IMG/VR virus record: IMGVR_UViG_3300034374_012765
Length of the DNA stretch: 60,629 nt
Reading direction: 5' to 3' (one strand)
Origin: an uncultured virus (IMG/VR IMGVR_UViG_3300034374_012765)
Taxonomy: Duplodnaviria; Heunggongvirae; Uroviricota; Caudoviricetes
Positions 19,258 through 52,976 of the stretch are shown one piece after another. The translations under genes and the position numbers were made by a program. A model generated the notes under the pieces. That model made no database searches. It was given only the letters and a program-made list of their open reading frames with translations, and was not told the origin of the DNA. Each line of letters begins with the position of its first letter. Position 1 is the stretch's first letter.

Positions 19258-19920
19258 ATGCCTGAAAACACCCAAAAGAGAGTACCCAAAGGGGATATAA
19301 AGTTCACAATCTCCTTATCAGAGGAGCAGAAACTAGCAAAAGCAGAAATTAGAAACCATCCATTTAGCTTTATAACAGGGAAGGCAGGTAGTGGCAAAAC
19401 TCTGTTAGCGGTCCAAATAGCTCTGGACTCATACTTCAAAAGGGAGGTAAACAAAATAGTAATCACCAGACCCACGGTATCTAACGAGGATAATGGTTTT
19501 TTACCAGGTTCTTTAGAGGAAAAGATGGAACCTTGGCTAGTTCCTATAAGATCCAACATGAGAAAGGTCTACAATAAACCGGATATACTAGAAAAAATGG
19601 AAAAAGATGAGAACATAGAGCTTGTGTCTCTAACACATTTTAGGGGCAGAACTTTTGATGACTGCATCGTGATTGTAGACGAATTCCAAAATCTCACTAA
19701 ACAGCAGCTAGGGATGGTACTAGGTAGACTTGGAAAGAACTCAAAAATGATGTTGTGCGGGGACGGGCAACAAATAGATCTTAAATTCAATAACGACTCA
19801 GCAATACATGAGGTTCCCAAACTTAAGGATTCATCCTTTGTTTATACGATTTCACTTAAGGACAACCATAGACACGAATCAATAGACGAGGTACTTAGGC
19901 TACTTGCTAATAGTTACTGA
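19258..19920 (+). CDS. phoH: PhoH-family ATPase
   Basis: GKAGSGKT Walker A, ITRP, GFLPG..EEKMEPW, RGRTF, DEFQN, GD..QIDL and HR motifs. Confidence 0.95.
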   Translation: MPENTQKRVPKGDIKFTISLSEEQKLAKAEIRNHPFSFITGKAGSGKTLLAVQIALDSYFKREVNKIVITRPTVSNEDNGFLPGSLEEKMEPWLVPIRSNMRKVYNKPDILEKMEKDENIELVSLTHFRGRTFDDCIVIVDEFQNLTKQQLGMVLGRLGKNSKMMLCGDGQQIDLKFNNDSAIHEVPKLKDSSFVYTISLKDNHRHESIDEVLRLLANSY

Positions 19921-30163: not shown

Positions 30164-31894
30164 TTACCTATTTGAAGCTATTAGATTTGCCTTCGCCTCT
30201 GAATTAAGTTCGTTCATATAATTTCTAGGATTAACAGAAGCGATGGAGATGTTAAGAGCAGACGGTTTGCCCGAGACAATACCCTCCTGGTACTCTACAC
30301 CATTACGATCCTGCCATCCTCCTCTCATCAAAACTAATTCGTCCCTCTGTATTATTATATCACCAAAATCATCAAGACCGATCTGTCTATTCCTTTGTGC
30401 AGCGCTTGCATTTTTGAGACCATCAATAGTTCTGTGATAATTTTCATTTTCCTCTCCAATAAAATAGAAAGAAACTGAATCAATACCCTCAATAGATTCG
30501 AGTATTGCTATTATATCAGACTTTGGTATTCTGTCCCTTCTTTTATTATTCAGCATATACTCGGAAATGGATGTCCTAACCTTATCCTTTATAATCTCAG
30601 GGTCATTTCCTTCGAATATGGAGATAATAGCATTCCCGATAAACCTTCTTATCCTAGGCTCTATGATTTTAACAACAGTGGTAGCTATCATCCTTCCAGA
30701 ATCCTCTATTAGATTCAATATCGAAAGCCTTTGTGAATTGGTCAGAAGGAAGCTTGTCTCCGGGATATCAAAATAATCCTGGTTACTAGTCATAGTAATA
30801 GTAACATCAGGCACAAGAAATATGTAAACCACATTATCATCATCCAAATACTCATCATCAAAGGTAGAAAAGGCCTGTATCTGTGAGAATATATTAAATT
30901 TCTGTAGGTAGATCTCATAATTTTCAGCATTGGCAAACACAAAAGCACGGCTAGTTTTCGGAGCAACTAACCTGGTAACTTCAATAGGCTCCGGATCTGA
31001 ACCAAATGAGGGATCGAGTACACCGGTCACCCTAACATAATCATCTAAGTTAACAGTATTCCCAAATAAATCCTCCCCACTATCCATAAATTTATAGGTA
31101 AGTATCTGGTCCTCTCTACTCTGGAGATTTCCGCTAAATCCAGATGTTTGTAAATACTCTACCCTTATCGTAGCCCCTTGCTGAGGAACTTTACCGAAAT
31201 TAGAATTACCAAAGTAGATATCTATTCCCTCCTGTATACCACTCTTAACCAGGTATCCCTCTTTGTTTAGCGGAATATCATAAAGGGATTCATATCTTTC
31301 CCATTTATTCCCATTCACATATACATCAACATAGAACTGATCTATCAGTGCACCAGCTTTGGAGGGTAAGTTAAAGCTCTGAAGAGCTCTCCCAGTACCG
31401 GTAAAAGTTGAGGATCCGAAAGATCCCTGTACTATCTTGAAGTTAAAAACTGCGGATCTATTAAGAGGTATCTTTACCGAAGGAGATCCAAGGATTACTG
31501 AATAAGGAAGACCGTTTTGTATACACTGAATTCTGGGTGTCCCCTTAAGAATTACCGCACCCCCACCAACATCAGATTCCCGAAGATTCCACCCCAGTGA
31601 AATTTCACCCTGAGCTGCCATGCCTCTGGATGGATCGTGGCCTGCTATTCTAGCTAAACTCTTTATAGAATAATTCCTTGTTGCTTCCTGAATGTTTAAT
31701 TCGGTTATCGAATCCTCGATAAAGTACAGAATCATCTGGGATAGATTTTCTAAGACGAAGAGAATCTGTCCCCAAGCAGATGCAACTGTAAATACATTTC
31801 TAGATTGGTTATAAGTTCTCTGTAGAAACTGATAGGAGTCGTTCAGAAGACCTCCAATTAAAATGTTGTTTTTCTTAAAAATATTTTGTGCCAT
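30164..31894 (-). CDS. gp6: Baseplate wedge protein gp6 / baseplate-J-like
   Basis: EATRNYSIKSLARIAGH, IYFGNSNFGKVP..GATIRVEYLQTSG..GN, GSDPEPIE..R..AP and AENYE motifs; follows gp25. Confidence 0.85.
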   Translation of the reverse strand: MAQNIFKKNNILIGGLLNDSYQFLQRTYNQSRNVFTVASAWGQILFVLENLSQMILYFIEDSITELNIQEATRNYSIKSLARIAGHDPSRGMAAQGEISLGWNLRESDVGGGAVILKGTPRIQCIQNGLPYSVILGSPSVKIPLNRSAVFNFKIVQGSFGSSTFTGTGRALQSFNLPSKAGALIDQFYVDVYVNGNKWERYESLYDIPLNKEGYLVKSGIQEGIDIYFGNSNFGKVPQQGATIRVEYLQTSGFSGNLQSREDQILTYKFMDSGEDLFGNTVNLDDYVRVTGVLDPSFGSDPEPIEVTRLVAPKTSRAFVFANAENYEIYLQKFNIFSQIQAFSTFDDEYLDDDNVVYIFLVPDVTITMTSNQDYFDIPETSFLLTNSQRLSILNLIEDSGRMIATTVVKIIEPRIRRFIGNAIISIFEGNDPEIIKDKVRTSISEYMLNNKRRDRIPKSDIIAILESIEGIDSVSFYFIGEENENYHRTIDGLKNASAAQRNRQIGLDDFGDIIIQRDELVLMRGGWQDRNGVEYQEGIVSGKPSALNISIASVNPRNYMNELNSEAKANLIASNR

Positions 31895-31898
31895 CTTC

Positions 31899-32270
31899 TT
31901 AACTTACTTTCAAAGCAATTGCTGGTGAGGTATTGCTTAAACCCGGAATATAAAAATCTAGGTACGCAATATCCCTATTTGTACCCTGATAAAATTTTAG
32001 ATCGAAATACCCATTAAGTTGGGAAAAAAGAGGAACATAAATCCTAAGATGTTCGTTTATTCTTTCTCTCAGACTAGTTTCGGAAAGGTTCAGAGAAAAA
32101 ACTAGATCCTCTAAATTTAACCCAAATTTAGGATCACCAAGGACCTCTCCCCGATTCGTAATGAGCATCATCTTAAGTTGCCCAACACATATATCGGCAG
32201 GGTTTGTTATCTCAAGGATATTCTCCTTGTAGTTAAAATCTTCTGGATCCTTGTTATAAATTTCGACCAT
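31899..32270 (-). CDS. gp25: Baseplate wedge gp25-like protein
   Basis: MLITNRGEVLGDPKFGLNLEDLVF, the gp25/GpW signature (TxxGERxxxPxFG); 123 aa. Confidence 0.85.
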   Translation of the reverse strand: MVEIYNKDPEDFNYKENILEITNPADICVGQLKMMLITNRGEVLGDPKFGLNLEDLVFSLNLSETSLRERINEHLRIYVPLFSQLNGYFDLKFYQGTNRDIAYLDFYIPGLSNTSPAIALKVS

Positions 32271-32301: not shown

Positions 32302-33078
32302 TTAATTCCACTGTAAGAAATAGGAAGGAGTATTCTCTCCGTTGATCATATCCATCACTTCTTGAAGCTCTTTTTCACCGTCGCTTCTAAGCTCAGAAGT
32401 ATTAACACTAACCCCACCAGGAAGGTTATAATTGAATGCACTTAGGACTCTGGATAGGCTTATCTTGGATTTAGCTAGGCAATATCTTATGAACAGCTCA
32501 TCGTCATATAAATCATCATCATCTATCGCGACAAAACATCTAACAGCAACGTCCATTCCATTCTGGTCATACCCTGTACCAACCCCTGACATGCCAGATC
32601 TATTGGGGTCCCTACCCAATATGGTTAGTTTTTTAGTGTTCTTATTCCACTTAAATGCATAAGTAGGCAATAGATAAGCTTGAGCAAGATCAAAATAGGA
32701 ATACATGACAGTACGATAAACTAAATTATCCCCAGTAAAGGGTGATAATAGAAGCTCAGATCCTAGGAGTTTAGAATCTCCAAAGTCTCTATCTGGGGTT
32801 CCTGATATACCCATTCCATTAACTTCTCTCACATCATATACAGTGACTATAGAAGGAGGGAGCTGTATTTGTCTAGTGTTTCTAAAACTAGGATTTGCAA
32901 AAAGATTATTAGCCAGTATAAATACCCGATCTTCTACGGCATATTGATAGTTATCGTACATATAATCCCTCGCCCTTCTAATGATTCTGTGTATTTCATC
33001 ATCATTTAGGTTATAAGGCAGCGAGCAGCTTGCCGATAAATCATCTTTAATCTCCTGTACTAATTCCTCTAATGTCAT
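32302..33078 (-). CDS. gp13: Neck / head-completion protein gp13-like
   Basis: C-terminal LPGGVSVN..LRSDGEKELQEV and FKWNKNTKKLTILG are typical of T4-like gp13. Confidence 0.8.
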   Translation of the reverse strand: MTLEELVQEIKDDLSASCSLPYNLNDDEIHRIIRRARDYMYDNYQYAVEDRVFILANNLFANPSFRNTRQIQLPPSIVTVYDVREVNGMGISGTPDRDFGDSKLLGSELLLSPFTGDNLVYRTVMYSYFDLAQAYLLPTYAFKWNKNTKKLTILGRDPNRSGMSGVGTGYDQNGMDVAVRCFVAIDDDDLYDDELFIRYCLAKSKISLSRVLSAFNYNLPGGVSVNTSELRSDGEKELQEVMDMINGENTPSYFLQWN

Positions 33079-33079
33079 C

Positions 33080-34477
33080 TCAATAATTCTGATTTTTAAA
33101 TATTATCCTGCGAATAGGATCATTCAGATTCTTAAGTCTAGAGTCTGTTATAAATCTACTCTGTCTTATATCACTGAATCCTTTTACCTCCTCTGTTTCC
33201 TTACTAACGTTGGCGCTGCTACCCAGATCAGCTTTTCTAATCACACCACCGTTAACTTCACAGTTTATCATTTTCCTCGGACAATCGATATAGCAGGAAT
33301 CTAAAAGATTCCCGTAATCGGCACTGGTATTATGAACCTTACTGTTATAAACCTTATTAGAATTGGCAATTTGTGACTCCAAAATTTCAGAATCCTTCAC
33401 CTCGCAACCATATAGGTTACAGTTAGCCAATTTGCAATTTCTAATTTTACAGTCTATCAGATCAAGATCAGAAAGATATCCAGACCCTTTGCACTTAGCG
33501 TTTTTCAATTGAAATCTACCAGTAGAGGTATCATAGTTAAAGAACGCATATTTAACCCCACCTTCAACTATTATATCAAATACCTTCTCGCGAATAACCG
33601 GAAAATAAGTCTTTATATTTTCCTCGTAACCCTTGAGGTCGACAAGTAGATGAAAATCAGGAAAATTCATAAAGAAAGACTCAGGGTCAGAAAAACTTCT
33701 AACTACCTTTGTGTACTCCTTCATCATCTCCTGAAGTCTCTTGAGGTCGGATTGACTATAAACCCTCTTTCCTGAAAGTATGTCATAGAGATATAATACC
33801 ACATAATCGACAACTTCCCGTATGGCGGAGATTTTCTTCTGATAGTCCTTCCCACCTAGGTATCTTATTTCTAGGTATCCCTTAGGGACTTTCGTGAAAT
33901 TAGCACCGTAATACTTCTCCTCTGGTATTTTAAAAAGTCTAGGATCTATGGATGAGATATTCTCGAGTATAGAAAATCTATTCCTTGGAACTATTTTCTT
34001 AACCGATTTAGCATAAACGTTATTGGTTCTATTACCAAACTTGGAATAAATCAAGCCTTCGTCTATACCAAGAACGAACTTAAGCTTATCCAGCTCTTCC
34101 ATTTTTTGCAAATCCCGGTTAGCTTTAGAAAAGCTGACCGAAAATTGGAAGGCACACTTGTCGCTTGTCCATCCATTTTCATCAATCCACCTTAAGGTCT
34201 TAATTAAAATGGGTATAGCCTCCACGTATGGAAGGGGACCAGTAATAAGCTCATTCATGTTAGATCCACCGGAATAATCAGGCTCCAACTTAAAGGTATC
34301 AGAAGTAACCGGGACCTTCGAGTGATATTTATTGCTCAGGACTACCTTCTTACCAAGGAGTTTGGACAACTGATCCACTATTCTCCCCCTAACCATCTCC
34401 GAGTAAAATTCGAACTCAAATCCGATAAGAGAAGAGGCTAAAGCAGTAGCTTTATCAAAGTGGGTATCCTTACTCAT
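33080..34477 (-). CDS. Putative amidoligase (COOH-NH2 ligase) family protein with a C-terminal beta-helix repeat region
   Basis: IGFEFEF, EPDYS..NELITGP, KYYGANF and YLEIRYLGG motifs; start MSKDTH overlaps the S1 stop (ATGAGTAA). Confidence 0.7.
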   Translation of the reverse strand: MSKDTHFDKATALASSLIGFEFEFYSEMVRGRIVDQLSKLLGKKVVLSNKYHSKVPVTSDTFKLEPDYSGGSNMNELITGPLPYVEAIPILIKTLRWIDENGWTSDKCAFQFSVSFSKANRDLQKMEELDKLKFVLGIDEGLIYSKFGNRTNNVYAKSVKKIVPRNRFSILENISSIDPRLFKIPEEKYYGANFTKVPKGYLEIRYLGGKDYQKKISAIREVVDYVVLYLYDILSGKRVYSQSDLKRLQEMMKEYTKVVRSFSDPESFFMNFPDFHLLVDLKGYEENIKTYFPVIREKVFDIIVEGGVKYAFFNYDTSTGRFQLKNAKCKGSGYLSDLDLIDCKIRNCKLANCNLYGCEVKDSEILESQIANSNKVYNSKVHNTSADYGNLLDSCYIDCPRKMINCEVNGGVIRKADLGSSANVSKETEEVKGFSDIRQSRFITDSRLKNLNDPIRRIIFKNQNY

Positions 34478-35627
34478 CCAGTGGTTTAGCAAATATTTTT
34501 CCCATTACAGCATCAACTTCATATATCTCAACAAGAACAGAATCTCCAGATTTTAGACCTTTATGGTCTCTTGTCATGCGTCCTTGAGGAATCATAGCCA
34601 TCAAGTCAAGTTCTGGAATTTCTATCAAAGCTCCATTCTTTCTTTTGTGCTTTATTATTGCCTTTACTGGCTCATGTGTACCATCATCAACGTCCTTTTT
34701 AAGGTCATATACGCGAACGGTCTTTTCTAAAGGACCTCCAAAAGTCAAGGTAAGCCTGTTATCGTCCTTAACCTCCTTAACATAGAATTCTATCTCGTCT
34801 CCAGCTCTAAACCCTTCAACCACATGATTCTCAAATTCAGTCTTGTGTATAAGACCAGTATAGATATCCTCCCATTCCACGAAAACTCCGAATTTAGAAG
34901 TGCCAGTAACATAACCCTTGTATTTCTTGGTCAAATCCAATTCCTGTATCTTCTGATCCATTATCTTCTCCAAATACTTCTTATAAGAAACTACGAATAT
35001 TCCTTTATGCTGTACATAACCATCTATCATAACGTAGATAACCTTCCCGATGTATGAGTCGAAGTCAGTTATCTTATTAGCAGCAGCAAGAGATCCAGGG
35101 AGAAAGCATTCAATTCCTTGCACATCCACGAGATATCCACCTTTATTAACAGATTTTATTCTGGCTTCATAGGCAAGACTTTCCTTATGAATCTGTTCAA
35201 AGAATTCGATCTTCATATCATTAATAAATCCATCAACAACCGAACCATAATAAGTACCCATTACATTCCTGACTGTGGTGTTAACCTTAGTCCCTACTGA
35301 AAAATCTAATCCGGAAATACCAAGTCTTTTAGCGTCCTTGATCTCTTTTGCCAGATCTATGTAAATGGACTGGCCACTATCGGTCTGGGCTATGCAGTAT
35401 TCGTCGTTGGACCGGAGGATTTCACACTCGTACGAGTTACCTGTTATGAGGTCTTTAGTATAGGCTTTATCTCCCATGAAGTCAAACATTTTATCATAAA
35501 CATCCTGCGCATAAGGCTCATGACAATAAACTTTGGAACCATCCTTGGTTCTCACTTTTTGGTTTACGGTAAATCCATTGGGTACGTCCCAGTTAAAGTC
35601 CTCAATCGGAGTGTTTTGTTCGATCAT
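34470..35627 (-). CDS. rpsA: Ribosomal protein bS1-like multi-S1-domain RNA-binding protein
   Basis: About four OB/S1 repeats, including ARIKSVNKGGYLVDVQGIECFLPGS and YKGYVTGTSKFGVFVEW..TGLIHKTE. Confidence 0.85.
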   Translation of the reverse strand: MIEQNTPIEDFNWDVPNGFTVNQKVRTKDGSKVYCHEPYAQDVYDKMFDFMGDKAYTKDLITGNSYECEILRSNDEYCIAQTDSGQSIYIDLAKEIKDAKRLGISGLDFSVGTKVNTTVRNVMGTYYGSVVDGFINDMKIEFFEQIHKESLAYEARIKSVNKGGYLVDVQGIECFLPGSLAAANKITDFDSYIGKVIYVMIDGYVQHKGIFVVSYKKYLEKIMDQKIQELDLTKKYKGYVTGTSKFGVFVEWEDIYTGLIHKTEFENHVVEGFRAGDEIEFYVKEVKDDNRLTLTFGGPLEKTVRVYDLKKDVDDGTHEPVKAIIKHKRKNGALIEIPELDLMAMIPQGRMTRDHKGLKSGDSVLVEIYEVDAVMGKIFAKPLDE

Positions 35628-35693: not shown

Positions 35694-38426
35694 CTACTCC
35701 ATTACGGAGGGCATGATTAAATATCGGATAAGATAGAATTCCCTGTTAATCCGGATACGCAAAGCACTCGATTCAATTAAATCAGGATATTCAGAATTTA
35801 TTACCCTATATCTGTTCAAAGCAGTTCTTACACTACCCGAAAAAAGAGTATTCTTATTACCATCCGAATCCACACCAGGTATGTTAATCTGTGCATTCTC
35901 CAAACTCAAAACGGATAAGTCATTAAGATTATCATCGCGCAAAGTGTATAAAACTGCTAGAAACACCTTCACGCTATCACCAATCTCAGTCAATTTTCTC
36001 TCCCCCCAATAAAAAGAAGATCTCACTGGATAAAGAGGTTCATAAACATAGCCAGCATCACCTATAGGTATATTATAAAAAGATGAACCAGTCGCACTGG
36101 ATGATTCGGGGAGCTTGTTTTTATAAACGGAAGTACTCATACCATTATCCATCAACTGATCCGAAAGGTCATAAAAGAAAGTCTCTATTGGGGAGTTTCC
36201 GTCGATATCATAAGTGATAGAATACCAAAGATCCCTATCATCAGAACTATAAGAACCAAAAGTTCCCTTTTTAGTCCCTTGCCAATACCAGCTATTTGTC
36301 TTGTTAGTAACTAAAAGGTCTAGAACTTCATTTATGGATTCTACTGTAAGATCTGATAAACCCGCACCCTCACCAGGGGAGCCTATACCAAATAAACTCC
36401 TTACAACAGCAGGAAATAAAGATGGAACCTCAGCAGCTAACCCGCCAACGACGGCAATTATACCCTTTATGGACTCCCAAACCCCTATAAGCTTAATTGG
36501 GAGATATTTTTCTATAATATAAAGAGATACCTTATTTGGGTTATCAACGGTCAGATATGATTCAAATTCGCTCTGATTTATTCCCCTAATAATTTTCTCT
36601 ATATCGCTAAGACCCTCGTAGTCGCTTTCCTTGACATCACTCAGAACTCCATATTCGACGTATTTGTTTTCTACCTTTCTGTAGGAAACCCTAAAGACGG
36701 AGTAGTCAGAATCTACACTCAACCTAATCAAGTCACCAGGATTTACATTAATAAGGGAACCGAGAGAATTTTTAACGTCATCACTTACTAAAGAAACCCT
36801 CATCGTAGTAATATCCTTCACATTTCTAGAATTAGCAGAAATTTGCCCCTCCTCAGGAACAATAAGTTCCCCACTAAAGCTATACGGGAAGGTGACAGGG
36901 AAAGTGTCTAGATCCTCATTTTTTATTTGTCCTCTGATGGAATCAAAGAAATCTCCATTTGGCTGATATGAGCTAAGACCTCTAGAAAAAGCACCACAGA
37001 CCATATCGCTTATCAGCGGTTTTAACCCACGGTTAGAATCAGAAGGATCAACTTTGGCCTCCTCGTACGGCATAATAGTTGTAATCGCAGGTGAAATATA
37101 GGGTTCTAAAAACTGGAGGAAAGCCTCAGATATGAGATCACATATAAGGCCGAGAGGGTCAGTGAGACCTTTAATTACAGTCCTTATCAATGATATTGGA
37201 TTAGTTATTTTTTCAGCCAATCCTTTCAGGACCCCCAGTATCACCTTAATAGGTAAGAGGAGTAGCTTTAAATAATTGAGAAGTATTCTGATTAAGAAAA
37301 AAGGATTCTCGGCTCCTATCTGTAACACTCTGGCAAAAGATACCAAATCCTCTTTACTACTTTCGGTTAAATCCGGAGATCCGCTTAGTGTAGTTTCCTG
37401 TATTTTGGTAAAATCTATCTTCGGGAACTTCCCCTCAAAAACCCCAGAAAGAACCTCATCATATGCAATCCCAGACTGATTTGAGAGCTGATCTAGGTAT
37501 TGCCTGGTTGGAGAGTCTGGGGAAACATCAGAGAAATCCCCAAGAACTAAATTTATTCTTGAAAGTCCCGGAAAACTAAGTCCAAGAACCGAGAATGGTA
37601 TGGAGATCCTACCATTTGAAGTAAAGTCACGAAGTGCGAGCCTTCGGGAAGACCTAAGGGAAGCACTGGAGAATCCAGGAATAACTACACTTCCATCCCC
37701 AGGAACCTCCTCAACATTCAGCGATTTTATCTCTAAATCGATCCTATAATAAGGATCTGAAGAATTTATTTTTCTGACAGAAGTAACCTCAAAAACCCCA
37801 TATTTTCCATCACTACTCACCTCTATCTCATCTCCACTTTTAAGTAATCCGAGGGATCCATTATTATCCTCGACGTCGGTTACTTCGCTAACGTTTATCG
37901 AGGTTAGATTCTCTATCCCGGAAGACGTTGTTGTTATTTGTCCATCCGAGGGTGCTTGATTGATGTTATATGTTATGGAATATGAGAACCGATCAAGCTC
38001 GTCGTCTACATTATCGGGAGATGATGAATTAATAAGACTCTTCAACCTTCCTATATCACCACCAACGTCAGCCAAATTTAAAGATATAGGGAATGGGAAT
38101 TCCTTAAGCTGCTCATTTATGCCCTCATCCAGCATGAATTGGAGGGGATTAGAAAATAGGGTCCTTATCGAGGAGAGTGTTTCTCTAATCTCACGAATTC
38201 CGCTACTCATTATCTTTTTACCCATAAAAATGGGAGCAAATGCTGTAGCTAAGCTTCTCTCGAAAGTCCTTATCTGTAGCTTAATCAAAAGTCCAAGTCC
38301 AAATAGGTTTGAATTGGGTATTTTGAATTTACTGTCGCTTACTATACTGTCAGCGGTGTCATTTACCCTGTCTATAAATGCGTTAATTTCCGCATCTTCC
38401 AATATCTTGTCGGGTAATACAGCCAT
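35694..38426 (-). CDS. Large hypothetical protein with hydrophobic helices and an internal domain duplication
   Basis: 910 aa directly after the gp5-like gene; amphipathic/hydrophobic helices (FFLIRILLNYLKLLLLPIKVILGVL). Confidence 0.6.
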   Translation of the reverse strand: MAVLPDKILEDAEINAFIDRVNDTADSIVSDSKFKIPNSNLFGLGLLIKLQIRTFERSLATAFAPIFMGKKIMSSGIREIRETLSSIRTLFSNPLQFMLDEGINEQLKEFPFPISLNLADVGGDIGRLKSLINSSSPDNVDDELDRFSYSITYNINQAPSDGQITTTSSGIENLTSINVSEVTDVEDNNGSLGLLKSGDEIEVSSDGKYGVFEVTSVRKINSSDPYYRIDLEIKSLNVEEVPGDGSVVIPGFSSASLRSSRRLALRDFTSNGRISIPFSVLGLSFPGLSRINLVLGDFSDVSPDSPTRQYLDQLSNQSGIAYDEVLSGVFEGKFPKIDFTKIQETTLSGSPDLTESSKEDLVSFARVLQIGAENPFFLIRILLNYLKLLLLPIKVILGVLKGLAEKITNPISLIRTVIKGLTDPLGLICDLISEAFLQFLEPYISPAITTIMPYEEAKVDPSDSNRGLKPLISDMVCGAFSRGLSSYQPNGDFFDSIRGQIKNEDLDTFPVTFPYSFSGELIVPEEGQISANSRNVKDITTMRVSLVSDDVKNSLGSLINVNPGDLIRLSVDSDYSVFRVSYRKVENKYVEYGVLSDVKESDYEGLSDIEKIIRGINQSEFESYLTVDNPNKVSLYIIEKYLPIKLIGVWESIKGIIAVVGGLAAEVPSLFPAVVRSLFGIGSPGEGAGLSDLTVESINEVLDLLVTNKTNSWYWQGTKKGTFGSYSSDDRDLWYSITYDIDGNSPIETFFYDLSDQLMDNGMSTSVYKNKLPESSSATGSSFYNIPIGDAGYVYEPLYPVRSSFYWGERKLTEIGDSVKVFLAVLYTLRDDNLNDLSVLSLENAQINIPGVDSDGNKNTLFSGSVRTALNRYRVINSEYPDLIESSALRIRINREFYLIRYLIMPSVME

Positions 38427-38429
38427 TCA

Positions 38430-39098
38430 TTATTTGGTTTTGGATACATTGGAAAGGTGAGACGGATCAGAAGGAATTACAGGAGGAGAAGTAGGGGCTC
38501 CCAGGTTCCCCAGATGCGTATGGGAATTAAAGTAACTTTGGAAAATGTTTCCCTTTATTACAGACTCCGTTGCAGCTTCACCAAGCTCTATATTGTTGCA
38601 ATTAACAATGACTTTATTATTCTCCATCCTTATCTGATCGTTACCCATCTCAACCACTATTCTTAATTCACCATCGTCCTGAGTATCCAATTGTACCTTG
38701 GCATCACCAAGGATCAGATTAAGTCCTTTCTTCTGCGTGTAGAATATCTGAAGTGGACCAGGTACAGCATCATTATCATAAATCAAGGAATGAGCTCCCT
38801 CGTACGAATCAGAGATTTCAGACAACAAATCGGGCGAGGTTTCCCAATCGGAATAGTAATTCATTCTATAGTAGTTCTGCCCGTCGAAATCAACAGCCAC
38901 TACCGCTCCGATTCGAGGAACAGAAATATTTCCCTTACCCCCTCTACCAAAGGAGGGATTTTGTACCTGACTAGCCCAGGGGATATCCTCCGTTTCCAAT
39001 CCATCGAAGAGTCCAAAAACCCGGATCTTTGCCCTACCAGATTTCTGGGGATCATCAATATCTACTATTTCTCCTAAGTATATCTTTGGATTTGCCAT
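38430..39098 (-). CDS. gp5: Baseplate central spike, gp5/gpV-like
   Basis: OB-fold YLGEIVDIDDPQKSGRAKIRVFG..IPWA..VPRIGAVV; C-terminal HTH (HxH) apex motif followed by GAPTSPP. Confidence 0.88.
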   Translation of the reverse strand: MANPKIYLGEIVDIDDPQKSGRAKIRVFGLFDGLETEDIPWASQVQNPSFGRGGKGNISVPRIGAVVAVDFDGQNYYRMNYYSDWETSPDLLSEISDSYEGAHSLIYDNDAVPGPLQIFYTQKKGLNLILGDAKVQLDTQDDGELRIVVEMGNDQIRMENNKVIVNCNNIELGEAATESVIKGNIFQSYFNSHTHLGNLGAPTSPPVIPSDPSHLSNVSKTK

Positions 39099-39101
39099 CT
39101 G

Positions 39102-41468
39102 TTAAATTTCATCTTCATCCGGATTAAATCCTCCTAAGCTAACATTATACTTATCAGGGGGCTTAGTGTTTCCGAGATTCAATGGGGGATCCACTATAAA
39201 ATCACCATTAGTAACCGGATAAACTTTACCAATATTTCCCTCTGGATAATTCCTTCTCACTTCCTGATAAACCTTTCCTGGAGGTTGAGAAAAATTATTC
39301 TCCGGCGATCTTATCTCACCCCTGGAAGACACAAGATTGGCCTCGTCATAAACACTGTCAGGCTGGAGGAGCTCATTAGAATACTTATCCTCATATACTC
39401 TATCGTTGAAGTTAGCATATTTTCTATCGGGGACTCCTAAATCACTACCAGGAACTCCACTATATACATCATCACTTGATAGACTATCATAATTTCTATC
39501 AGGGACGCCAAGATCCGCACCAGGGACATCTGGATAAACATCATCTCCAAAATCAGGATAAACTCGATCAGGGACGCCAAGATCCGCACCAGGGACATCT
39601 GGATATGCATCTCCAGAAGGCTCTTGATAAACTCGATCAGGGACGCCAAGATCCGCACCAGGGACATCTGGATATGCATCTCCCGCTGGATCCTGGTAAA
39701 CTCGATCGGGGACTCCAAGATCCGCACCAGGGACATCTGGATATGCATCTCCCGCTGGATCCTGGTAAACTCGATCGGGGACTCCAAGATCAGTTCCGGG
39801 TACGTTCGCATAAGCATCACCAGAAGGCTCAGGATAAACCCGATCAGGAACTCCGAGATCAGTTCCAGGTACGTTCGCATAAGCATCACCAGAAGGCTCA
39901 GGATAAACCCGATCAGGAACTCCGAGATCAGTTCCAGGTACGTTCGGGTATTCATCCTTCACTCCTTGTATAGGTGGATACACTCTCTCCGGAGGACCTC
40001 CCTCTCCAGTGGTTTGGGGGTTTGGCAGATTTCCCTTAAATATGTTGTCTATTCCGGTTTCCGCTGCACCGTTTAAAAAATTCTCCAGATTATTAAATCC
40101 GAATCTACCACCATCATTTGTCAATCTGCCTAGCTGAGACGGATTAAGGGAATATATGTTACCAAGAAGGGATTGATCAAGGCCATCCAAGTTGCTTGTA
40201 AGTGCACTAACCCCTTCATTAACCAGATCATTCACTACATTAGAAACAGCATTAGTTAAAAGCTGACCGCCAAGACCTAAAAGTTTCTCCAAATCTAATG
40301 ATGAATCCCCTAGCTCCTCTAACGAAGAAGAATTTTGGTCATATCCATCCGCGAGTATCAATGGCTTTTTATCACCTCTGATATTTGGATACTGACTCTT
40401 AACTCTAACTTTACCTACATGAACCTTAAAGGAGTTGGTTTCAGGATCGGCTGAACTTGATCCCATATCTATCGAGCTTTTATAAGGAACGCTTTCACTA
40501 AAATCAAACTCACACTGCTGGCATTCGTAAATTTTTACAGGCTTGATCCCACTCTGATCCTGCTGGTTAGTAAAGGCTGCAAAATCATTAGACAGTCCAC
40601 TCTGATCTAATACATTACCCACAAAGCTAGAAAATGATCCTCCACCTCCCCCACTGTCGGACCCAGCTGATCTATCAAAATCAGAACCAGCAAGTCCACC
40701 AAAGCTAGATATAATACTCCCACCAGGATTGGTGTTAGAATTGATAAGACCTCCTAGATCATTAAGAGCAGTCAATGCAGTGCTAGACGCAGTAAGTCTA
40801 CTTGTTTTAAAGAAGTTCCTTATCTCAGTTACGAATATCCACATAGTGAACTTCCTGAGATTTCTTGGTACAAGCCATCTCATGTTATCAAAATCAAAGG
40901 TAGCCTGATTATAGAGATCTGCTAATGCAGAGATTCTAAGGTTTAAAGATTCAAGTGTATTGAAGGTTAAAACCTTATCACCGGTCCTTTGAGTATCAAA
41001 CCCATCAATCTCATTAGAAGGCTGAAATCCATTTTTACTTACAAGTGAAAGCTGGTCAAGACCCTCTATGGACTGGAAAAACCAGGGGGAATTTGTATTT
41101 ATATCTTTCAGCAAGCTTTGGAACTGCAATATAGCGTTTGCTCTCTTTCTTTGATTATTATCGGCAAATCCTGCGTCTCTTTGGATTAGATAGTTATATG
41201 CGGAATAATAAGCAACCTCCGGATTTGAAAGTTGGTACTGTGGCTGTCCACTAAAAGAATTCTGTATGTTAGACATGCCAGAGTTCTCATTGGTATAATT
41301 ATCTCTCTTAAGTAATGGACTTGGAGCCCATCCCCATTCTGTACTTATCGGCAAAGAACCAAAATCAAACATAACTTTAAACCCAAGATATGTAGGATCT
41401 TCATTTCCGCCAGAATTGGATAATTTAAATCCTTTCAGGAATAAGTTTCTATTTCTATCGGTTGCCAT
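39102..41468 (-). CDS. Baseplate/tail-tube-fold-like protein with a C-terminal acidic tandem repeat
   Basis: PWFFQSIEGL, ESLNLRI, VPRNLRKFTMWIFVTEIR and CEFD motifs suggest a tube-like fold; 8 x 23-aa repeats. Confidence 0.55.
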   Translation of the reverse strand: MATDRNRNLFLKGFKLSNSGGNEDPTYLGFKVMFDFGSLPISTEWGWAPSPLLKRDNYTNENSGMSNIQNSFSGQPQYQLSNPEVAYYSAYNYLIQRDAGFADNNQRKRANAILQFQSLLKDINTNSPWFFQSIEGLDQLSLVSKNGFQPSNEIDGFDTQRTGDKVLTFNTLESLNLRISALADLYNQATFDFDNMRWLVPRNLRKFTMWIFVTEIRNFFKTSRLTASSTALTALNDLGGLINSNTNPGGSIISSFGGLAGSDFDRSAGSDSGGGGGSFSSFVGNVLDQSGLSNDFAAFTNQQDQSGIKPVKIYECQQCEFDFSESVPYKSSIDMGSSSADPETNSFKVHVGKVRVKSQYPNIRGDKKPLILADGYDQNSSSLEELGDSSLDLEKLLGLGGQLLTNAVSNVVNDLVNEGVSALTSNLDGLDQSLLGNIYSLNPSQLGRLTNDGGRFGFNNLENFLNGAAETGIDNIFKGNLPNPQTTGEGGPPERVYPPIQGVKDEYPNVPGTDLGVPDRVYPEPSGDAYANVPGTDLGVPDRVYPEPSGDAYANVPGTDLGVPDRVYQDPAGDAYPDVPGADLGVPDRVYQDPAGDAYPDVPGADLGVPDRVYQEPSGDAYPDVPGADLGVPDRVYPDFGDDVYPDVPGADLGVPDRNYDSLSSDDVYSGVPGSDLGVPDRKYANFNDRVYEDKYSNELLQPDSVYDEANLVSSRGEIRSPENNFSQPPGKVYQEVRRNYPEGNIGKVYPVTNGDFIVDPPLNLGNTKPPDKYNVSLGGFNPDEDEI
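39402..39956 (-). repeat. In-frame tandem repeat, 8 copies of about 69 bp (DxYxxVPGxDLGVPDRxY)
   Basis: Visible directly in DNA and protein; 555 bp = 185 codons. Confidence 0.95.
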
Positions 41469-45861: not shown

Positions 45862-46189
45862 TATTATCAGAATTTTCTCCGGATGCTTTAGGACCTTCAC
45901 CCCCCACATCATCAGGCAATCCGAGAAATTCAAAGGGCTTAGAATTCTCTTCCTGATTTGACGTAGATTCACCTAAAGTAGAAATGGTAGCATCCTGATC
46001 GTCTAGGAGCTTCTGTGATTTGGCCTCCAGTTGATCGTTTTTAATTCTCTGCAGGTGCTGAAGATGTAGTTGCTTTCCCATTTCCTGAGATCTTCTGATC
46101 CTCTCCCTTTGCTCCTTTAGAGTCTCATTTTTACCTATATAGCCAAATTGCTTGGCCATTTGTCTTCTCTGTCTTCTAGATAAACTCAT
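45854..46189 (-). CDS. Small basic helical hypothetical protein
   Basis: MSLSRRQRRQMAKQFG; translationally coupled on both sides. Confidence 0.65.
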   Translation of the reverse strand: MSLSRRQRRQMAKQFGYIGKNETLKEQRERIRRSQEMGKQLHLQHLQRIKNDQLEAKSQKLLDDQDATISTLGESTSNQEENSKPFEFLGLPDDVGGEGPKASGENSDNNG

Positions 46190-46776
46190 TATATAGAAAA
46201 ATTAAATCCCTTACTTTTTTTCCCACCTGAACCGTCTTGGTTAGATCCTTGGATATCTATTCCCAGGACATATTTAAAGAGCTTCAGGAAAAGACCAGGG
46301 ATAAAAATATCCTTTGATTTAACCACGTCATTAGCAGGAATAAACTTGAATTCCATACTTTGCTCTTGTTCGCTGCCATCTGTAGGAGCTTCCATTTTAT
46401 CCAATCCGGTAACATCAACGGCAAAACATGGCTGCTCGTGATCGACAAACTTAGAGGAAGTAACAGACCCTAAAAAATACCATCTTTCATTCTCAGATGC
46501 TTCAAATCCACTTTCTTCAAAAAGCTCTCTCTTTGCAGTTGACAATAAATCAGGATCCTCCTCATCACTAGTCCCAGTTATAAGTGTAACACACCTACCG
46601 CCCTCCCTAAATGGGTTATTCTCCTCCAGAACTCCAACTGCAAGGGGTAATCCTTGCTCATCAGAAACGAATGGCATGATTACAACATTCATAAAAAGGG
46701 GTATTACCCCTACCATACCGTCTCTCTCCACCATATGGAGATTCGGTGATTCGTATAATACCTTATTCTGACTCAT
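46189..46776 (-). CDS. Nudix hydrolase
   Basis: Nudix box GTSDEEDPDLLSTAKRELFEESG. Confidence 0.88.
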   Translation of the reverse strand: MSQNKVLYESPNLHMVERDGMVGVIPLFMNVVIMPFVSDEQGLPLAVGVLEENNPFREGGRCVTLITGTSDEEDPDLLSTAKRELFEESGFEASENERWYFLGSVTSSKFVDHEQPCFAVDVTGLDKMEAPTDGSEQEQSMEFKFIPANDVVKSKDIFIPGLFLKLFKYVLGIDIQGSNQDGSGGKKSKGFNFSI

Positions 46777-51581: not shown

Positions 51582-52976
51582 TTATCCCATGAACAAATCA
51601 ACAGCAGTCTGTCGATAGGCCAATTTATCCTTCTTAATCTGAGGGTTTTTAAGAGGAGCTTTAGTTCTATCCAGGATATCAAGAGGAAGAAGAGGACCAA
51701 AAGTATCCTTCAGTATCTTTTTATCTGTTCTCCACTCTAGCGGGATTGATAGTGCAAATCTAACTATGTCTAGATTCAAGAATGGGCTACGTAGCTCTAA
51801 TGTATGGGCCATTGACATCTTATCAAGCCTTGGTAGATGATAGTAGCTAAGCTCATCAAAAATGTCGGACCTTTGAGAATCATATTCGTGAATCCTTTTA
51901 TATCCGCCAAAGAGTTCGTCCGCACCATCTCCACTTAAAACTATCCGGTATCCACCAAATTTCTTAACAGCATCAAAGAGATGATATTGTGGAATTACCG
52001 ATCCTAAATCTATGGGACTTTCATTCCACATCTTATAGATCTCTCCATTCATCCTAGGATCCATCGAATAATCCAGAAAAGAAACTTCAGAGCCTAAATG
52101 GTCAGCGAGAATCTTAACATACTCAGTTTCATTATTTTCTATAGTAAACCAGCGAACATCAGATCCAGTTTCTTTCAGTATGGCAGCAATTATCGAAGAA
52201 TCTAGTCCGCCCGAAACCAGAAGGGAAATCGGGTAGTCCTTAGATATTAACCTATTACGAACAGATTCAAACATCTTAGTCCAAAGCCATTCCATATGAT
52301 CCTCATAGCTACCACCTTCGAGCTCATATATCGGGTGTTCAAATCCCTTAAAATAAGAAGGATACACATTCTTGAATTCGGGACTTATCAAATTAAAAGA
52401 ATAGATATTATTAGGTAGGAATCTCTTAACCTCTGAGTATGAAGTTCTTTCATCGGTATTATAACCCCATTTCCTTATAGTACTCATGGTGGTAAGATCA
52501 ATTTCACTATTCAAGCTAGCTAGTGATTTCACCTCCGAAGATATCTCACCCAAGTTGTTGTAGTAGAGTGGCTTTCTACCAAGTGGATCAGTAAATGCTA
52601 TTACGTCCTTTGTATTCGAGTCAAATATAACTAATGCCCAAAATCCGTCCCATGTCTGTATCTCAGGTAAAAACATCCCACAGAACATCTCAAAAGAACC
52701 GCCAGCATATTTGCTGAACATATTGCAAAGATATTCAGTATCAGACGAGAACCTTTCATTATCATAATTAAATATCTCACCATTAAACAGCATATAAATA
52801 CCCTTAGAGACTTCGATTGGTTGATCCCATGTATCACCATCGGAGGTTTGAATAGGAAGTCTATGATGACATAGATACCATCCGTCACTCTCTATCGTTT
52901 TACTCTCTATCCCCCTATGCTTTATAGTGTTTAGATTCTCTTCAGTCCCTGTTTGTGTTAAAAGTATACCACACAT
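51582..52976 (-). CDS. asnB: Asparagine synthetase B-like glutamine amidotransferase
   Basis: MCGI (Ntn Cys), HRG, FNGEIFNY, SDTE, SGGLDSS, SGDGADELFGGY and ELRSPFL motifs. Confidence 0.93.
   Translation of the reverse strand: MCGILLTQTGTEENLNTIKHRGIESKTIESDGWYLCHHRLPIQTSDGDTWDQPIEVSKGIYMLFNGEIFNYDNERFSSDTEYLCNMFSKYAGGSFEMFCGMFLPEIQTWDGFWALVIFDSNTKDVIAFTDPLGRKPLYYNNLGEISSEVKSLASLNSEIDLTTMSTIRKWGYNTDERTSYSEVKRFLPNNIYSFNLISPEFKNVYPSYFKGFEHPIYELEGGSYEDHMEWLWTKMFESVRNRLISKDYPISLLVSGGLDSSIIAAILKETGSDVRWFTIENNETEYVKILADHLGSEVSFLDYSMDPRMNGEIYKMWNESPIDLGSVIPQYHLFDAVKKFGGYRIVLSGDGADELFGGYKRIHEYDSQRSDIFDELSYYHLPRLDKMSMAHTLELRSPFLNLDIVRFALSIPLEWRTDKKILKDTFGPLLPLDILDRTKAPLKNPQIKKDKLAYRQTAVDLFMG

Follow-up and report, generated by a model that had tools for sequence, protein, structure and literature searches.

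The gene at positions 33080 to 34477 (minus strand, 465 aa) of the 60,629-nt stretch of uncultured-virus DNA analysed here, hereafter the window, is predicted to encode an amidoligase of glutamine-synthetase (GS) fold fused to a beta-solenoid. This ligase-solenoid fusion, which is tied to neck genes and occurs in active and in dead forms, is conserved and apparently undescribed. Taken as a whole, our favoured reading, to which we give a little less than an even chance, is that of an intact carboxylate-amine ligase with a binding tail that would dock on the neck or baseplate and act in late morphogenesis. With its pairs of active and naturally dead members and its tie to neck genes, the family offers a direct way to probe a role in virion assembly.

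The ORF of the ligase runs on the minus strand from an ATG at 34477 to a TGA at 33080, and an in-frame TTG at 34492 represents a possible alternative start that would add five residues. Upstream lies a ribosomal-protein-S1-like gene (34470 to 35627, minus strand, 385 aa; PF00575, E 3e-17), whose stop overlaps the ligase ATG by 8 nt, the junction reading ATGAGTAA. Downstream, only one base separates the ligase stop from the ATG of a gene for a neck protein or head-tail adaptor Ad2, similar to T4 gp13 (32302 to 33078, minus strand, 258 aa; phrog_211, E 2e-9), which matches the annotated neck protein of Tenacibaculum phage PTm1. Both junctions, noticed in a previous sequence-only reading of this DNA, were confirmed. 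Since 7 of the 14 junctions in the same minus-strand gene run are of 4 nt or less, such tight coupling is weak evidence of partnership. The run also holds genes for gp25-like and gp6-like baseplate wedge proteins (30164 to 32270, minus strand; PF04965, E 0.0024, and phrog_219, E 4e-31), a gp5-like baseplate hub/spike gene located upstream (38430 to 39098, minus strand; phrog_430, E 2e-14) and a gp23-like capsid gene. A scan for promoters and terminators gave results at chance level. Metatranscriptome contigs from three of four runs cover parts of the ligase gene and one of them spans the S1 junction, in libraries that may contain DNA.

Some other genes of the window are worth recording. Just upstream of the gp5-like gene, a 788-aa protein (39102 to 41468, minus strand) bears about ten tandem repeats of 20-22 residues (VPGxDLGVPDRVY-like), which leave long ORFs open in other frames, and the gene situated between gp5 and S1 (35694 to 38426, minus strand) ranges from about 100 to 1700 aa across relatives while its neighbours are constant in length. 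The structural region contains as well a PhoH-like gene (19258 to 19920, plus strand) and a NUDIX hydrolase gene (46189 to 46776, minus strand). An asparagine-synthetase-like gene with an amidotransferase domain (51582 to 52976, minus strand) is found 17 kb from the ligase and is not a conserved close neighbour in relatives.

An AlphaFold2 model of the ligase, built from a 134-row alignment and with a mean pLDDT of 92.8, shows at residues 6-245 (33743 to 34462, minus strand) a GS/carboxylate-amine-ligase catalytic domain that has the saddle-shaped GS catalytic fold and is devoid of the N-terminal beta-grasp domain. Comparison of this domain with GS (4bax) by VIA rendered a Z of 12.3 and an rmsd of 3.4 for 182 aligned residues, from 4bax residue 103 on, and Foldseek rendered a GS match with E 3e-5. 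Among the predicted viral structures of BFVD the top match was a full-length member of the ligase's own family, and hits 2-6 included four models named 'Amidoligase enzyme' (E 3.5e-14 to 3.3e-10). The amidoligase/glutamine-synthetase fold that had been proposed is thus borne out for the modelled structure; GCS/GshA and PafA were not among the top VIA rows, which is no argument against kinship. The Pfam family PF12224 scored 18.4 bits against the ligase (E 0.0022), under its gathering cut-off of 22, and when 70 relatives taken from 127 full-length representatives were scanned, 21 matched at E<=0.001 and 16 passed the cut-off. An Atlas score of 0.97 was obtained to clusters in which 14-29% of the members carry PF12224.

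The catalytic domain is followed by a middle linker domain of helices and strands (residues 246-320; 33518 to 33742, minus strand), in which F268, D280 and N314 are conserved in active and dead members, and then by the beta-solenoid (residues 321-432; 33182 to 33517, minus strand), which has a period of 5 residues and a Cys/Ser ladder and is modelled with a DSSP strand every 5 residues at pLDDT above 90. The beta-helix had been assigned to the last ~110 residues; the model agrees as to the solenoid but not as to its extent, the last 33 residues (433-465; 33083 to 33181, minus strand) forming a non-repeat, low-confidence C-terminal tail with pLDDT below 60 from about residue 441. This tail contains a motif, RF-x-x-D-x-RLK, that is invariant in the close clade only, which is unusual for a disordered end, and that is possibly a docking peptide. 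Superposition of the solenoid on right-handed solenoids (bactofilin 2n3d, pectate lyase 1ee6, antigen 43 7kob) gave rmsd values of 2.2-2.6 over 97-111 residues, whereas left-handed beta-helices, in spite of the top Z (11-13.5), gave an rmsd of ~11; on account of this difference, the modelled solenoid is read as probably right-handed. The quadrilateral Rfr coil of pentapeptide-repeat proteins was considered and rejected, the Pfam scores of the ligase being below the cut-offs (17.1 of 38 bits for PF00805, 13 of 20.2 for PF13599) and the rmsd to 2j8k being 4.3, poorer than to the other right-handed solenoids. A sequence search of the PDB with the ligase produced only weak pentapeptide-like matches, an Atlas search with residues 262-435 produced a best score of 0.76 and no lead, and a single-sequence fold of the C-terminal 145 residues was unusable (pLDDT 32).

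The sequence-only reading had raised the possibility that this ligase is inactive, because the strand-4 motif CAFQFS (residues 108-113; 34139 to 34156, minus strand) departs from the usual one, with Q111 in place of the usual His and S113 in place of the usual Asn/His. That motif (C108-A-F-Q-F-S113), as well as the GxExE, ELxT and ExR motifs described at the same time (G19-F-E21-F-E23, E76-L-I-T79 and E203-I-R205), is indeed present in the translated ORF. The superfamily features listed in the accessible part of PMC2588565 are the motif GhExE in strand 1, acidic residues in strands 2 and 3, two arginines, one within strand 5 and one in the loop preceding it, [HD]x[NH] on strand 4, which in PafA is [HQ]x[NH], and Ex[RK]x2D on strand 6. 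In the ligase, whose site residues were assigned by motif, GhExE corresponds to G19-F-E21-F-E23 on a predicted strand at 16-25, invariant in the 118 homologs (118/118) having those residues, and the acids of strands 2 and 3 to E65/D67 and E76, each found in 120/120 close homologs, as is Q111. E203 and R205 are invariant in close homologs, the next motif place being G208 family-wide and the strand-6 Asp being absent; R150 is invariant in intact members, and K188 is likely, from the motif assignment, the strand-5 basic residue, where Arg is usual. Over these 120 close homologs (59-86% identity), site residues are invariant at 11/11 positions as compared to 16/72 of the other polar positions, a test that is partly circular because three of the site residues had been picked beforehand from the family alignment.

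Representatives of at least 400 aa numbered 127 among the 150 listed of 699 (E<=0.001). The core set E21/E23/E76/E203/R205 is complete in 83 of these 127 listed representatives, 35 retain at most one of the five residues, and only 9 lie in between. The 35 dead members keep full length and the solenoid, as does in particular one dead clade of 43 unique proteins with a mean identity of 48%. At position 111 the 83 intact representatives have H (68 of them), Q (14) or N (one), so that 82/83 carry H or Q, versus 8/44 of the other representatives, and on the tree built from intact members the position has changed no fewer than 11 times. Position 113 is N in 77 of the 83; among the 120 close homologs, 109 have S there and 11 have N. 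We take it that yeast glutamate-cysteine ligase presumably also uses Gln at this strand-4 place. A search for a Gln-metal precedent in solved ligases, with E. coli YbdK as the query, matched YbdK structures only, and in the accessible part of PMC5613772 Gln328 of the Leishmania enzyme is given as catalytic, with no Gln-Mg bond in the paper's table.

It could still be argued that this copy is a pseudoenzyme with a purely structural role, since it bears two strand-4 changes (H to Q and N to S), belongs to a family that makes pseudoenzymes and lies within a structural operon. We regard this as very unlikely, because the true dead members lose their residues jointly, as the bimodal distribution (83 vs 35) indicates, while the other site residues of this copy are invariant in its 120 homologs, Gln recurs at position 111 in intact members and in PafA, and S and N alternate at 113 inside the close clade. 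The signature of a pseudoenzyme, i.e. joint loss of E21, E76, H/Q111, K188, E203 and R205, was not found, all of these being invariant in the window's clade. On the conserved residues, then, we hold with good confidence that this copy is probably active. As to the repurposed or structural role also suggested previously, the retention of dead members supports a non-catalytic or structural role for the family, but inactivity of this copy is not supported.

With regard to distribution, 655 homologs of like length were found, the representatives at E<=0.001 amounting to the 699 mentioned above, and the Atlas clusters containing the family are 100% viral. GTDB rendered 5 matches, all of them in MAG contigs. 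Three of these, L428 (PAUJ01000008.1), L427 and L429, carry the phage S1-ligase-neck block, one of them in a Flavobacteriaceae bin, and are probably binned phage DNA. In GenBank, matches were found in six records of uncultured phages of 462-735 kb, two of them duplicates; all five distinct huge-phage genomes carry both S1 and the ligase, and in 4/5 the two genes are ~48 to 440 kb apart by record coordinates. Four cultured relatives, found via the neck gene and a neighbouring gene (Tenacibaculum pT24, Flavobacterium MaF61, Chryseobacterium MA9V-1 and Sphingomonas PAU), gave no ligase match in searches that detected two positive controls, and S1 is likewise absent from them. Lak-A1 gave no ligase match either, with a recoded TAG that may lower sensitivity. 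Its S1-like gene (MK250015.1, 437361-438392; L362, L369) has a frame open in both codes, and its neck gene needs the TAG-recoded table. Because most relatives infect Bacteroidota, a host of this group is likely for the window phage. The ligase family is a widespread, virus-restricted gene of phages of 200-735 kb, which standard annotation misses because it falls below the Pfam cut-off and has no PHROG.

In the 79 close loci (56-100% identity; one locus belongs to this very phage), the gene directly upstream, where there is one, is S1 in 75/75 cases, and the neck gene lies downstream of the ligase in 78/78, the whole block being conserved there. A wider set, obtained from sub-alignments, comprised at least 361 loci, at least 276 unique proteins and at least 69 clusters at 60% identity. 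Among the loci listed, 45/68 assessable clusters have S1 no more than 2.5 kb upstream, a link that reaches down to 25% identity; 46/66 have the neck gene no more than 3.5 kb downstream, and 31/61 have gp5 no more than 9 kb upstream. The persistence of the S1 link in so many clusters and down to such identity indicates that the S1-ligase-neck order is old; it is an inherited operon order. Linkage to S1, on which the earlier reading had made its proposal depend, is thus conserved in part of the relatives and lost in two clades: on a family tree from a quick search, with SH-aLRT support only, the S1-unlinked clusters fall in two clades of 21 and 7 rows, both with support 100. Catalysis has been lost at least twice on this tree, once in a clade of 14 rows in which S1-ligase-neck is retained, and once within the 7-row unlinked clade. 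Two clusters scored as having partial sites, L125 and L134, turned out to be ORF-start artefacts. Full-length but catalytically dead lineages are represented by L236-L287 (clade of alignment A5) and L298-L331 (part of A6); in L236-L287, an inversion upstream has left S1 at the head of the run.

The S1 link could mean that the enzyme tags the phage S1 or its ribosome, or forms a complex with S1, and thereby favours late phage translation. In addition to the constant adjacency in close loci and its depth among the listed clusters, it can be adduced that in one clade the link has persisted although the gp5 block upstream is lost, that the four cultured relatives are without both genes, and that S1 is present elsewhere in 19/26 ligase-bearing records, many of them incomplete, in which the two genes are apart, something that favours some tie or simply reflects two core genes. 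Against it, 14/18 dead-site clusters, among the loci listed, keep S1 upstream, two well-supported clades have lost the link, and Lak-A1, in a search that detected its positive controls, has an S1 and yields no ligase match. Moreover, no S1 residue tracks ligase activity. A candidate substrate, K291 of S1, is K in 78% of 46 sequences labelled 'active' and R in 19/19 labelled 'dead', and was rejected since R is also present in the window's own S1 and in the S1s that accompany intact ligases of the same clade, one of the 'dead' labels behind the pattern (L293) being in addition an ORF-start artefact; the C-terminal Glu of S1, as a possible donor, is not conserved (5/46). A co-fold of ligase residues 1-445 with S1 scored 0.00, which speaks neither for nor against binding.

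In 18 genomes in which S1 and the ligase are apart, which represent two clades and hence two events rather than 18, eight block markers were sought in 20-kb windows and were found near the ligase in 11/18, near S1 in 0/18 and at arbitrary places in 1/20; with an Hc2 marker, added after the fact, the figures were 16/18, 0/18 and 2/20. Ligases without a nearby marker were accordingly 7/18 before Hc2 was added and 2/18 after, and one separated S1 adjoins the large terminase. The second neck gene, that for head-closure Hc2 (phrog_679), is directly upstream of the ligase in 25/25 loci of two clusters; it encodes a 690-aa protein with an Hc2/T4 gp14-like domain (L297:7903-9978, L315:7909-9972) that has no match in this window. 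Thus, because the order survives a dead site and is lost in two clades, because Lak-A1 has S1 without the ligase, and because the ligase, not S1, stays with neck/baseplate genes after separation, the dedicated S1-tagging module put forward earlier is unsupported, and we deem any S1-ligase module improbable. Nor does this gene seem to provide a new means of ribosome control. Since the ligase follows neck genes more faithfully than S1 does, a role in particle assembly is, from gene order, more likely than one in ribosome tagging.

Assembly has its own difficulties, however. The four cultured relatives and Lak-A1 build particles without a detectable member of the family, the site deviates from the published one (S113 vs N/H, K188 vs Arg, strand-6 Asp absent), the separated genomes reduce to two clades and some of their ligases have no marker nearby. 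An active ligase might alternatively act on a host protein or a small molecule, its place in a late operon serving only timing or packaging and injection. An intact site is uninformative as to the target, timing by itself could account for the gene order, and R2K ATP-grasp enzymes of jumbo phages are predicted, in the accessible part of PMC7824862, to modify host proteins. Nevertheless, a dead enzyme would be useless for such a purpose, yet full-length dead members persist in at least two clades, and the repeated placement beside either neck gene is better explained by an assembly partner; we therefore consider a host or small-molecule target unlikely.

A further alternative, a role in modifying the cell wall or envelope, would align the ligase with the Amidoligase_2 cassettes of smaller phages, PF12224 being its nearest family. 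Iyer et al. in 2009 reportedly predicted a cell-wall role for such cassettes. In LUZ24-like phages, amidoligases adjoin glutamine amidotransferase and ATP-grasp genes, according to the accessible part of PMC3890496. In the ligase family, on the contrary, the 144 unlabelled neighbours within two genes included no amidotransferase or cyclotransferase and a single ATP-grasp match at E<=1e-5, and the gene lies in a late structural run. The cell-wall modification contemplated in the earlier reading thus finds no support in gene context, and it is the least probable of the functions considered, highly unlikely in our estimation. As for other neighbours, genes for DUF7487 (often 400-600 aa) and for GIY-YIG/NUMOD3 endonucleases repeatedly adjoin the ligase or the neck gene (L212, L162, L178, L168, L288, L120, L133), in a pattern as for homing elements. 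Mahaphage-type S1 genes (L389, L390, L391, L392, L394, L396, L397) have a different recurring upstream pair, made of a ~130-aa protein, with a UvrB/UvrC motif in 3/3 scanned, and an unknown of 205-230 aa.

For the assembly reading, the following mechanism can be envisaged. The protein would be an ATP- and Mg-dependent ligase that belongs to a divergent branch of Amidoligase_2 confined to phages and that is fused to a beta-solenoid. By analogy with the superfamily, E21, E23, E65/D67, E76, Q111 and E203 would hold metals and ATP, R150, K188 and R205 would steady the substrate carboxylate and the acyl-phosphate, and a glutamate carboxylate would first be phosphorylated and afterwards coupled to an amine. 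The acceptor may more likely be a lysine side chain or another organic amine than ammonia, because the N-terminal part of glutamine synthetase has no counterpart in the domain. Judging from gene order and the dead relatives, the ligase would be made late, with neck and baseplate proteins, and would dock on one of them via the solenoid and the linker. Docking would be the more lasting role, and the ligase chemistry, which would modify or cross-link the partner in most lineages, would have been dropped at least twice; the S1 gene would be an old operon neighbour, not a dedicated substrate. A more specific version, in which huge phages of Bacteroidota type use a PafA-like ligase, docked on the neck or baseplate by its beta-helix, to make isopeptide bonds, on virion proteins or between them, while the particle is being assembled, is in our opinion a rather doubtful proposal. 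If true, it would mean enzyme-driven cross-linking or tagging in morphogenesis, frozen to a structural subunit where the active site was lost.

No description of an amidoligase-solenoid fusion or of the S1-ligase-neck order was found in the literature searched, subscription papers being mostly outside the search, nor was a phage amidoligase substrate found there. The family is not described in the accessible portions of PMC9723584 (text and supplement) and PMC7824862. In the accessible part of PMC7162821 (Al-Shayeb et al. 2020), a 'possible rpS1' of huge phages is proposed to redirect initiation, and the S1-like gene upstream of the ligase is of the same kind; 'amidoligase' and 'ligase' appear 0 times in its main text, and the annotation table has 'amidoligase' in at least 4 places, two inspected rows of which were not tied to the ligase family.

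Amidoligase_2 (PF12224; e.g. UFV-P2 ORF23) has the same fold as the window ligase and shares with it the motif order GxExE, DxS, E-x-x-T, strand-4 polar pair, K/R-Y-x-x-x-N and E-x-R. The window ligase differs in being fused to a linker and a solenoid, in belonging to a family of which about a quarter is dead among the listed representatives, and in lying among neck and baseplate genes rather than beside amidotransferase or ATP-grasp genes. With the GS/GCS2 (YbdK)/PafA superfamily, the catalytic domain gives Z values of 11-12 and rmsd values of 3.1-4.3 over 175-195 residues, at only 8-14% identity, without the N-terminal beta-grasp domain and with S113, K188 and G208 off the consensus. PafA is matched by Foldseek with E 1.1e-3 and nearly all of the published strand motifs are found in the ligase, but no gene for a small Pup-like partner is conserved. 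Finally, the right-handed beta-solenoids, such as bactofilin BacA and those of pectate-lyase type, have a common architecture that by itself shows no function, and that in the window ligase is fused to an enzyme.
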